Assembly: GCA_030408475.1 (NCBI GenBank)
Contig: JAUHQG010000027.1
Span: 3,024 to 67,023, forward strand
Length of the DNA: 64,000 bases
Reading direction: 5' to 3'
Source: Candidatus Amphrikana amoebophyrae
GTDB taxonomy: Bacteria; Chlamydiota; Chlamydiia; Chlamydiales; JACRBE01
Made by a program: the position numbers and the translations under genes. Each line of letters opens with the position of its first letter. Positions within the stretch are counted from its first letter, which is position 1. The notes under the pieces were generated by a model. The model was not told where the DNA came from, did no database searches, and saw only the letters and a program-made list of their open reading frames with translations. This document shows positions 15,247 through 21,043 of this stretch, in pieces.

Positions 15247-15489
15247 ATGGCTGGAATAATAGGATTAGTAAACCATGTTAGAGAGGTTATAAATCCTCCG
15301 CCAATTACGGCTAAGGAAGCTGTTAAAAATGCTGCTCTTTGCGCTTTTTGCGCTCTTGGAATGTATACTTTAAACCAAGGTGCCGAGCTTCAGGGGCGTC
15401 ATGTGTATACTTTTCCAACTTATGGGGTTTTAGCTTTAGTTTGCTTCAATTCGGGAATGAAAGTGAAAAGGTATTTTGAGCAAGACTAG
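15247..15489 (+). CDS. Hypothetical small membrane protein
   Basis: 80 aa with two hydrophobic segments. AAGGAG lies upstream of the ATG. Its stop codon overlaps the stop of the convergent 962-aa gene (CTAG). Confidence 0.35.
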   Translation: MAGIIGLVNHVREVINPPPITAKEAVKNAALCAFCALGMYTLNQGAELQGRHVYTFPTYGVLALVCFNSGMKVKRYFEQD

Positions 15490-18475: not shown

Positions 18476-21043
18476 TCACATAAACTGAACTGCCATTTTT
18501 AGCCCAAGTGTTTTGCCTAGTAAATTCTGGGCTAGATGTGCAATTGGGAGTACTCGAGCAAAAATTGTGGCTGTCGCCCTTGTTGTTGCGCTTATGACTA
18601 CTCTGAGGGCATTGTTACACCCTCTACGTCCTCTTCTAGCGCCTTCTTTAACAATTGCAACGGTTGCATCTTTTACAATTCGAGGTTTGTTGCTTCTAAT
18701 AAAGGCGTCTGTTGCTGTAGCCGCTATAACTGAAATATAGAGGTTGTTCGTGTACAGCATTACCCCCGTATTCACAGCCATCGCAGCACTATTGGATATT
18801 AGATTGAGTTTTGAAAACCTTGGGAAAGCTCTTTTAGTCGAATAGCCTTCCCAGATAACTATCCGGGGTGCCATTAGAGCCGTGCAAGCGGCACTCACAA
18901 TTTGAGGGATATGAGAGCTAATCATAGCGTGTACAACTGTCATGGAGTATGCTCTTGCTGAGTGTGTGATAGCCCATTTACCATAATCAGAGGCGCTATG
19001 AGTTTGCGCTAGCGTGACAAATTCATGTATAATGACCCCTGTTGCTCCTACTGTAGCTGAACGCTTTATCCAAGTTACTGTTTTTGAAGCAAGTTGAAGT
19101 CGCTCTGGAAGTAATTTTTCAACTCTTTTTAGATCGGACAAGAGCCTTGTTAAAGCTACTTTTGTTTTTCTTTCTGGAATACCATTTAAAAGAACTTTAG
19201 CAATATGCTTTTGATAAAGGGGGTTTTTATGAAGTACTCTTTGAAAGGAAGTAGAAGTAAAAAAAATAGCGGATAGATTGATAAGTGATTTTAAGACAGG
19301 GTGCTCAACATAAGAAGAAGCTATTTGGTGAATAATCCCCATGGCAACTTTATAGGGGATCATACCAGGTCCAAAGCTTTCAGTGGCAAGCTGAGTTGAA
19401 ACTGATGAGGCGACACCAAGTTTATGAAATAGCCTTGAAATAGATTCACGCATACGACCATTTACAATAGCGTTTAACAAGGGTGAAGAGATATCATTTA
19501 TCATTAACAATATACTGCCGGCTAAAAACTCTTGCGCATATGAGGCTAGTAGGTTTATTTCTGCTTGCTTGTAGCCTCTTTCTCTTAAATAAGTAGCCGC
19601 ATGCTCTGTTTCTCTTAGGGCCTGAATTTGTATTTCATTCATTATCCTCACAATGGTGGGGTGATGTTTGAAACTTGAGTTGTCATCGGCTTCATAGCTA
19701 ACTAATTGTGTGATACCTAAAGTAGCTATACCTCCCAAGAGAGGGTAGCCGACGGCTGCAGAGGTTATTCCACCTAATATAGCTATCGACATCCGTATGC
19801 CAGAAGGAGAATCATTTAAAACTGTAAGCGTGTTAGAAAGAGTGGGGGCGAGTCTCATCAATTCGAGGTCACCTATAATTTTCATTAAAGCATTCACTTT
19901 TGGGATTTCTTCACTAGCTTCCATATGTCTTGCTCCAAATAAAATGGAACTTGAGCAATTATCAAGTAAACCTCTAGGAGATGTTGAGCGTAAAGAGTAG
20001 TATTTATCGAGTAGGTTGCGTAGTTTTTGCGCTGGATTTTCTTCTCCAACCCTTTCGCCGTGGCAAACATGATGGATCAGATCTTGAACATCTCTAAATA
20101 GAGCTTCAATTTCTAAAAGGGTATCGACCCCTTTTTCTTTAAGCTCATGTGATTGAGATTTAAGCGAGCGAATGGTTGTTTCCAAATTATGATGTAAATT
20201 TTCTAAGATCACTTCAAAAGGTATTCCTTTTACGATTAAGTCGTGAATGATGCCTAGAGCTCCTTGGCGAACCTCTCTTTGTAAGTAATTTTTAATGAGG
20301 GTTTTAGGTAGTGAAGCCATAAAGCTTTTTAACTTAGTCATGCAAAATTGAGTTCCACTGCGCAGGAAGCTTTGAAAAAGTGGACTCTTGATCAATGCCC
20401 GTTTAACACTCGGCATATTAACTATGGCTAAAGTAACCCCATCAGCGGTACCAAGAGCAGTTTTGATAAGATTGAATGCTAAAAACTGTAAAGCATAAAA
20501 ACTAGCCCCTTCTTTAGTCGACACATCGTCTTCAATGCTAGGCAAGGGGGCACCAAGTAACCCCTTTGAAACCTCTTTTCTCGTTTCATTTGCAAGTAAA
20601 GTGACATACCCAGCGTCCCACAGACCCAAGTTACAGGCGATTTCTTGAGCCCCTATCTGAATAAAAAGACACACCGCAAATTCGGCCGCGTTAGTTATTG
20701 TCTTTGTGCGACTTATGTGAGCTTTAGAGGGGTTTCCTTGTCTAGCATCTTCGATGTCAAGTGCCAATTCAATCCTGAATGCCCTGAATCGTGCCAAAGA
20801 GAGTTGGGCCATTTGTCGAAAAGTGAATGGAGCAGGATTTGCCATAATTGGAGCAGGAGCTCTCATTCTTCTAGGAGCATCGATTCTACCCATATCTAAT
20901 TGATATAGAGCAGCTTCTGCGATAATTCGCCTTAGTCTAGGAGTTTCCATCTGAGCATCACTAAAGCCAAGAGATCTAACATATTCTCTTGCTCTATGAA
21001 ACTCCCCTCTTGGATCTGCCCTCCGCAAAGGAGCAAATGCCAA
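18476..21043 (-). CDS. Large hypothetical protein, paralogue B (855 aa)
   Basis: Uninterrupted 2.6-kb ORF with a TTG start and a weak SD. It is paralogous to 15486..18374 over its whole length but lacks the ~70-aa acidic N-terminal extension of paralogue A. Confidence 0.8.
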   Translation of the reverse strand: MAFAPLRRADPRGEFHRAREYVRSLGFSDAQMETPRLRRIIAEAALYQLDMGRIDAPRRMRAPAPIMANPAPFTFRQMAQLSLARFRAFRIELALDIEDARQGNPSKAHISRTKTITNAAEFAVCLFIQIGAQEIACNLGLWDAGYVTLLANETRKEVSKGLLGAPLPSIEDDVSTKEGASFYALQFLAFNLIKTALGTADGVTLAIVNMPSVKRALIKSPLFQSFLRSGTQFCMTKLKSFMASLPKTLIKNYLQREVRQGALGIIHDLIVKGIPFEVILENLHHNLETTIRSLKSQSHELKEKGVDTLLEIEALFRDVQDLIHHVCHGERVGEENPAQKLRNLLDKYYSLRSTSPRGLLDNCSSSILFGARHMEASEEIPKVNALMKIIGDLELMRLAPTLSNTLTVLNDSPSGIRMSIAILGGITSAAVGYPLLGGIATLGITQLVSYEADDNSSFKHHPTIVRIMNEIQIQALRETEHAATYLRERGYKQAEINLLASYAQEFLAGSILLMINDISSPLLNAIVNGRMRESISRLFHKLGVASSVSTQLATESFGPGMIPYKVAMGIIHQIASSYVEHPVLKSLINLSAIFFTSTSFQRVLHKNPLYQKHIAKVLLNGIPERKTKVALTRLLSDLKRVEKLLPERLQLASKTVTWIKRSATVGATGVIIHEFVTLAQTHSASDYGKWAITHSARAYSMTVVHAMISSHIPQIVSAACTALMAPRIVIWEGYSTKRAFPRFSKLNLISNSAAMAVNTGVMLYTNNLYISVIAATATDAFIRSNKPRIVKDATVAIVKEGARRGRRGCNNALRVVISATTRATATIFARVLPIAHLAQNLLGKTLGLKMAVQFM

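Follow-up and report, generated by a model that had tools for sequence, protein, structure and literature searches.

The 64-kb stretch of DNA analysed here (the window) belongs to a 76.7-kb contig of a metagenome-assembled genome (MAG) labelled Rhabdochlamydiaceae bacterium / 'Candidatus Amphrikana amoebophyrae', an organism name for which a literature search gave nothing. It carries two large adjacent genes, both labelled 'hypothetical' by NCBI, that are the subject of this study and that we refer to as A962 and B855:

15486..18374, minus strand: A962, an open reading frame (ORF) of 962 amino acids (aa) with a TTG start (locus tag P0S95_03285, MDN3504583.1)
18375..18475, minus strand: spacer between A962 and B855, 101 bp, AT-rich
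18476..21043, minus strand: B855, an ORF of 855 aa with a TTG start (locus tag P0S95_03290, MDN3504584.1), the upstream paralogue

An initial annotation, made from the letters of the window alone, had described a tandem pair of same-strand paralogues at this position. This description is borne out: both ORFs were found, and BLASTP aligns their products with 32% identity and 51% positives at E = 6e-116 over 782 aligned positions, so that the paralogy is real. The peptide strings quoted in the annotation all lie within the translations. Its claim of an alignment over the entire length stands for the core, which is colinear (A962 139-900 against B855 47-807), but not for the N-terminal ~140 residues of A962, which have no counterpart in B855, nor for the last 50-60 residues of the pair, which do not align. 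To call the proteins giant was an overstatement, given that an ORF of 1099 aa is present 4 kb away. No third copy was seen when both proteins were compared with the whole window by tblastn, and the expansion of the family elsewhere in the genome that had been considered was not found.

Both ORFs run uninterrupted for 2.6-2.9 kb, with a codon-position GC content resembling that of other window genes. A Shine-Dalgarno-like run, GGGGAGGG, is located inside the spacer, 4 nt upstream of the TTG start of A962; terminator and promoter calling in the spacer produced nothing convincing. The overall GC content of the two genes is 0.41-0.42, against a window mean of approximately 0.36, and this is raised because their products are rich in Ala (11%) and Arg (7-7.5%): the extra GC resides in codon positions 1 and 2, and GC at the third position (GC3; 0.29 for A962, 0.31 for B855) is at the level of the other 41 window ORFs. 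Since GC3 is at the genomic background, A962 and B855 are native, and recent horizontal transfer was rejected on the same ground.

A two-sequence profile, searched exhaustively with HMMER against 1.84 billion representative proteins, returned 4 matches, namely A962 and B855 themselves, a protein of 850 aa (P0003, E = 3.6e-123) and a fragment of 133 aa (P0004, E = 5e-4). When A962, B855, and P0003 were run against Pfam (hmmscan, E up to 10), only scattered coiled-coil-type noise was obtained, and the models in that library for DUF582, IncA, and other chlamydial effector families were unmatched by any of these 3 full-length members. NCBIfam, PADLOC, and PHROGs gave no meaningful family match, and when the profile was compared with every chain sequence in the PDB, nothing but coiled-coil noise appeared (E >= 0.08). 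An anti-phage defence role or a phage origin was rejected because the PADLOC and PHROG models were unmatched. Scans of GTDB genomes and JGI metagenomes for family peptide patterns gave no match, the window's own MAG apparently being outside the genome collection. Word-indexed protein searches returned the query only, one of them missing two sequences of its own query alignment, and they were not used as evidence of absence. No curated library contains a detectable relative of the family, which is undescribed, in agreement with the initial annotation, which recognised no known domain and proposed a new family.

The P0003 gene was located on Logan contigs of run SRR32456846 (locus L001). Synteny between this locus and the window extends from the genes for IleRS, EamA, signal peptidase, and CT021, through that for a Trp/Tyr permease, to that for UDPGP. 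In the window, the interval between permease and UDPGP contains a sphingomyelinase-like gene, an 80-aa ORF, A962, B855, and a 460-aa orphan; in L001, the same interval contains a 76-aa ORF, P0003 as the only family gene, and, in divergent orientation, an orphan of 514 aa. P0003 is 31-32% identical to B855 (BLAST alignment of 763 aa, E = 3e-104) and 27-29% identical to A962.

The nearest genomes for comparison of the slot were located via the L001 signal peptidase. In one of these (locus L010, ENA ERZ26692719), the gene order is UDPGP, a 1032-aa protein without Pfam match, a 72-aa ORF, and the permease. The 1032-aa protein scores 27.6 bits against the family hidden Markov model (HMM), colinear over HMM positions 341-724, compared to 3.7 bits for the best of 500 shuffles; hhalign gives a probability of 82% and E = 1e-5, colinear over 332 columns. 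With 18-20% pairwise identity to the other members, it is, judged from these profile comparisons, a remote homologue of the family. A score of this kind is invisible at database scale, which explains why the global search came back nearly empty, and the synteny-guided profile search thus recovered a homologue that lay beyond the reach of the exhaustive HMMER scan. A further, distant member is present on a 2.25-kb Logan contig (L002, 1256..2249, plus strand), where it is split over frames 2 and 3 with a gap of approximately 100 profile positions, through either degradation of the copy or an error in the assembly. Approximately 100 other permease- or peptidase-anchored loci and more distant chlamydiae, in which the synteny is lost, contained no member detectable with the family HMM. 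The family thus occupies a fixed slot between the UDPGP and Trp/Tyr permease genes in a small clade of environmental chlamydiae; it is lineage-restricted, with a narrow distribution and without a match to any known family. No homology to a housekeeping family was found, members are present in L001, L010, and L002, and both window copies are intact, so that neither of the outcomes named by the initial annotation as speaking against it was encountered.

When the window is compared with L001, identity is 45-66% for eight flanking proteins (64% for the permease, 63% for the signal peptidase), whereas it is 28-31% for family members. Going by these identities, the family diverges much faster than its neighbours, which is consistent with the fast divergence of host-interaction (effector) genes. 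A962 and B855 are 31-32% identical to each other, and the distances A962-B855, A962-P0003, and B855-P0003 are nearly equal, giving an almost star-like relationship. This places the duplication at about the same age as the divergence of the window and L001 genera, and given that both copies have stayed intact since, function is favoured over pseudogenisation. B855 is slightly closer than A962 to P0003, but the N-terminal similarities between A962, P0003, and the L010 protein are marginal (shuffle p 0.01-0.05), and neither copy is put forward as the orthologue of P0003 or as ancestral.

The segments of the two proteins that are discussed below are the following:

17880..18374, minus strand: variable N-terminal region of A962 (residues 1-165), without a counterpart in B855
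17232..17315, minus strand: top-conserved N-domain block of A962 (residues 354-381), GMLGILHDVIVKKVPTEVTLRSLSHNLE, with the highest three-way identity; its His residues are absent from the remote L010 member
20180..20263, minus strand: matching N-domain block of B855 (residues 261-288), GALGIIHDLIVKGIPFEVILENLHHNLE
16746..16844, minus strand: Gly-rich hydrophobic hairpin of A962 (residues 511-543), LGIAVIGGSLSTISG-HT-FIGGIATWVIANMVSY, kept in all members
19694..19798, minus strand: Gly-rich hydrophobic hairpin of B855 (residues 416-450), IRMSIAILGGITSAAVG-YP-LLGGIATLGITQLVSY, kept in all members
15579..15698, minus strand: Arg-rich C-proximal patch of A962 (residues 893-932), 12 Arg in 40
18554..18652, minus strand: Arg-rich C-proximal patch of B855 (approximately residues 798-830), EGARRGRRGCNNALRVV...

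The hairpin is the best-conserved element of the family. It is kept even in the L002 fragment, which matches this region at E = 1e-18 in a targeted search, and its turn-prone Gly/His/Pro centre reads GHT, GYP, QHP, or DSP. Hydrophobicity was assessed on the Hessa biological scale in 19-residue windows, with proteins of the same 64-kb window as controls. The best sums of the family are 3.8-4.6, and none of its windows is at or below 3. By comparison, the permease, an MFS transporter, and a histidine kinase each have 9-12 windows at <= 3, and the N-terminal anchor of a HEAT-repeat protein also reaches <= 3, while soluble enzymes have minima of 7-12. The hairpin of A962 sums to 4.5-4.6 over 19 aa, between true transmembrane (TM) helices and the soluble controls. 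The hydrophobic segments of the family are thus marginal: they are not Sec/YidC-type TM helices, but ordinary soluble sequence is clearly less hydrophobic, and the several strongly hydrophobic helices of approximately 20 residues that mark a polytopic membrane protein are absent on this scale. The initial annotation had pointed to several hydrophobic stretches that could be membrane-inserting; a conserved hairpin is indeed present, but the TM helices of this window exceed these stretches in hydrophobicity. In line with the annotation, which saw no N-terminal signal peptide, inspection and hydropathy show no hydrophobic window among residues 1-60 of A962, B855, or P0003, and no Sec signal is evident.

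Both AlphaFold2 models that were made, of full-length B855 from a 3-sequence alignment (mean confidence score, pLDDT, 35) and of B855 270-560 (pLDDT 46), are all-helical, with a long helix at residues 276-327, and the family is accordingly predicted to be all-helical. No canonical catalytic motif is common to the members. The 3 close members share only an HD dipeptide. In the L010 member, other residues take the place of His in the conserved GxLGIxHD and HNLE blocks, with Gln at the position aligned with the HD His. An enzymatic role is unlikely given the absence of a catalytic motif and these replacements, and it was dropped as a reading, with the caveat that the alignment is uncertain at such distance. 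The Cys content of the family is low, at 0.8%.

The N-terminal region of A962 has a Ser/Thr-rich start, followed by an acidic run, LELDDSDDEPDLDEPADDFD, and then by the Pro-rich stretches LPPLLPP and DAPPPPIA; it is probably disordered. Among the first 25 residues, 5 are Ser or Thr in A962 and 8 in P0003. The Arg-rich tails reported by the initial annotation correspond to a genuine Arg-rich patch, but this is C-proximal and not a literal tail, the very end being an acidic segment in A962 and a hydrophobic one in B855. P0003 has a patch similar to that of A962 (10 Arg in 40), and the L010 member has none. Each of the two proteins contains two copies of the motif [VI]K[RQ]xxxxxPx[FY]Q, approximately 385 residues apart (A962 306-317 and 691-703; B855 213-224 and 601-611), and the motif is kept in P0003. 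Comparison of the family profile with itself (hhalign) gives a weak match of 25-48 columns around this motif that is not significant (probability <1%); the repeated motif hints at what may be an ancient internal duplication.

The surroundings of the pair are as the initial annotation described them: a 423-aa EEP/sphingomyelinase-like gene, an 80-aa gene, and a 460-aa orphan.

13779..15050, minus strand: 423-aa sphingomyelinase-like gene beside A962
15247..15489, plus strand: small ORF of 80 aa, convergent with A962 and overlapping its stop codon
21153..22535, plus strand: orphan of 460 aa, or 445 aa when counted from the first ATG, divergent from B855

The 423-aa protein is weakly similar to sphingomyelinase C/EEP proteins (TIGR03395, E = 2.5e-6; PDB 2ddr, E = 5.8e-5) without any Pfam match. 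It has an N-proximal hydrophobic stretch of approximately 40 residues (73-110; Hessa sum 1.9) that resembles an Inc-type bilobal domain, and on sequence grounds it may be an Inc-anchored lipid phosphodiesterase. The gene is absent from the L001 and L010 slots. Small ORFs at the same position as the 80-aa ORF are present in L001 (12550..12780, minus strand, 76 aa) and L010 (5162..5380, minus strand, 72 aa), tail-to-tail with the family gene and overlapping or nearly touching its stop codon; the 3 are mutually 22-25% identical and may encode a co-evolving small partner protein or be chance ORFs. The 460-aa orphan has a repeated E/D-T-x-G-A-D-T-G motif. It is 34% identical to the L001 514-aa orphan (8358..9902, minus strand) over the C-terminal 244 aa (E = 8e-37), only the C-terminal half being conserved, and it has no Pfam, NCBIfam, or PDB match and no orthologue in L010.

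Further along the window, 5 genes (23603..33217) lie between the genes for UDPGP and a GT4 glycosyltransferase. Since the latter two are adjacent in L001, this block is an insertion or deletion between the genomes. It encodes an N-anchored HEAT-repeat protein, a 1099-aa Hpt and double-receiver protein with a PEPDVE repeat, a histidine kinase, a GT2 glycosyltransferase, and a TPR protein. Three more ORFs lack a Pfam match (49037..51169, 710 aa; 34798..35811, 337 aa; 39709..40728, 339 aa; all minus strand). In L001, approximately 4 kb from P0003, positions 1..5647 hold an apparent integrated element (phage-type integrase, DUF1016/YhcG nuclease, DnaG zinc-ribbon protein, and DUF3987 protein) that is absent from the window.

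The reading we tentatively favour, with rather less than even confidence, is that A962 and B855 are secreted effectors that associate with host membranes. The proteins would be directed at the host and exported without a Sec signal, presumably via the chlamydial type III secretion system (T3SS). Before export they would be soluble inside the bacterium, since their hydrophobic segments are merely marginal. After export, the Gly-rich helical hairpin would attach to or insert itself into a membrane of host origin, for example that of the inclusion, perhaps assisted by the Arg-rich C-proximal patch, leaving the long helical or coiled-coil parts and the variable N-terminal region accessible for host interactions. 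The family's 28-31% identity between genomes with 54-66% identity in flanking genes, its narrow distribution, the lack of a Sec signal, and the conserved hydrophobic hairpin are all consistent with this. A chlamydia-restricted, helix-rich family with a fixed locus and presence/absence variation in close relatives is typical of chlamydial host-interaction proteins, whose Inc and effector sets are enriched in coiled-coil, helix-rich proteins (PMC3048545). We also count in favour the adjacent sphingomyelinase-like protein with its Inc-like N-proximal hydrophobic domain and the Ser/Thr-rich N-termini of A962 and P0003.

Secretion, its route, membrane targeting, and a host role are things that we infer, and a number of observations weigh against an effector role. 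The 64-kb window contains no T3SS gene or chaperone, the nearest TPR gene being more than 10 kb away, and the N-terminus of B855 is Arg-rich and not Ser/Thr-rich. In GCA_041447075.1, the slot holds a 195-aa gene only, so that a close relative is apparently without the large gene. Rapid evolution and a narrow distribution would fit non-essential bacterial proteins too. The hairpin arms of approximately 15-16 residues and the turn of 2-3 residues are at the bare minimum for Inc helices, and their hydrophobicity is marginal; the HEAT-repeat neighbour has a window with a Hessa sum of 3.5, and the hairpin could simply lie buried within a helical protein that is soluble. Finally, the AlphaFold2 confidence is unusable and gives no support to any fold.

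In a different explanation, which we consider improbable, the pair are soluble cytoplasmic helical scaffold or repeat proteins, with no membrane role and no export, and the hydrophobic stretches are buried core helices. The all-helical prediction, a hydrophobicity within the range of buried helices in the HEAT-repeat protein, the weak internal repeat that hints at a duplicated helical module, and the lack of a conserved catalytic motif would all fit. However, no other part is as well conserved among the very divergent members as the hairpin, which has an unusually high Gly content for a core helix, and rapid evolution with lineage restriction is more typical of host-facing proteins. If the hydrophobic segments do contact a membrane, this could also happen inside the bacterium: peripheral or monotopic inner-membrane proteins, or envelope-associated structural proteins that are not exported and contribute, for example, to the architecture of a developmental form, are an unlikely alternative. 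Several moderately hydrophobic Gly/Ala/Ser-rich segments at conserved positions, an Arg-rich patch that could bind anionic lipid, a small, putatively membrane ORF that always adjoins the family gene, and the missing T3SS context all point that way. The Cys content of the family is low, though, unlike that of the Cys-rich proteins found in the chlamydial envelope; there is neither a signal peptide nor a hydrophobic segment of TM grade, and extreme divergence relative to the flanking genes, together with a close relative that apparently lacks the gene, would be odd for core envelope components.

The long predicted helix or coiled coil of B855 (276-327) that precedes the marginally hydrophobic Gly-rich hairpin raises the prospect of a pore-forming or translocator-like protein whose hairpin inserts into a target membrane, as this arrangement resembles that of proteins that switch from a soluble to a membrane-bound state. 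We regard this as quite unlikely, given that there is no sequence match to a translocator or toxin family and no adjacent gene for a TPR class II chaperone or a minor translocator, that the proteins are almost twice the size of CopB/IpaB-type proteins, and that a close relative without the gene would be unexpected for an essential translocator. Hardly any weight is given to the idea that the ORFs are decaying, non-functional remnants or an annotation artefact. TTG starts in both genes, the L002 relative split over two frames, and the relative with a mere 195-aa gene in the slot could be cited for it, but 2 uninterrupted ORFs of 2.6-2.9 kb with normal codon-position GC, protein-level conservation in 3 genomes despite saturated divergence, and the strong Shine-Dalgarno-like site of A962 are difficult to reconcile with decay.

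Returning to secreted, host-membrane-associating effectors, a bolder version would make the family a new class of host-membrane-targeting effector. It would have a new fold, a short Gly-rich re-entrant hairpin in place of the Inc bilobal domain, a rapidly turning-over 'effector slot' shared with a sphingomyelinase-like Inc-type enzyme, sub-functionalised paralogues, and, in A962, an acidic Pro-rich host-interaction region. We consider this version doubtful.

Environmental chlamydiae have many lineage-specific proteins that presumably shape host range, almost none of which has been characterised. The pair provides a clean example, as an orphan family that is barely visible database-wide persists in one slot while diverging to 18-31% identity. 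Should A962 and B855 prove to be secreted membrane-targeting effectors, the chlamydial effector repertoire would gain a new sequence family and probably a new fold, and the family and the sphingomyelinase-like gene would together mark a variable locus for interaction with the host. For now, the impact is modest: chlamydial genomes commonly contain lineage-specific tandem paralogues of obscure function, the results demonstrate no new mechanism, and without experiments the family will stay another 'hypothetical protein' family.

Among known systems, the Inc proteins are an obvious point of comparison. They are defined by two TM helices of 15-32 residues separated by a short turn rich in Gly, Pro, Ser, or Thr, in a domain of 40-60 residues (Dehoux et al. 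2011, PMC3048545). Incs of up to approximately 1500 aa are known. Like these proteins, the family is chlamydia-specific, lacks a Sec signal, is helix-rich with long helices, is highly divergent between species, and has a hydrophobic helical hairpin with a turn that contains Gly, Pro, Ser, or His. Unlike the bilobal domain, however, the hairpin spans only approximately 33-35 residues with arms of 15-16 residues, is located mid-protein and not near the N-terminus, and is less hydrophobic than TM helices of the same window. Since the Inc definition is reached at its lower limit only, we do not file the family as Inc.

In general terms, the T3SS hydrophobic translocators (CopB/YopB/IpaB) and the hairpin proteins of the colicin/Bcl-2 type resemble the family, in which a marginally hydrophobic, Gly/Ala-rich helical hairpin comes after a long helix or coiled coil; such an arrangement is compatible with a switch from a soluble to a membrane-bound state. 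In contrast to CopB/YopB/IpaB, the family proteins are much larger, are not conserved across chlamydiae, and have no sequence similarity, chaperone, or translocon operon context; there is no Pfam or NCBIfam match that would make them translocators, and the adjoining genes are orphans, the sphingomyelinase-like gene, the permease, and UDPGP. In Chlamydia, the DUF582 proteins CT619-CT621 are tandem paralogous effectors of approximately 800-900 aa that are helical, lack a Sec signal, and are restricted to chlamydiae. A962 and B855 differ from them in giving no match to DUF582 or any other Pfam model at E up to 10 and in being confined to a few environmental lineages, but they resemble them as adjacent large helical paralogues that lack a Sec signal and are restricted to chlamydiae.

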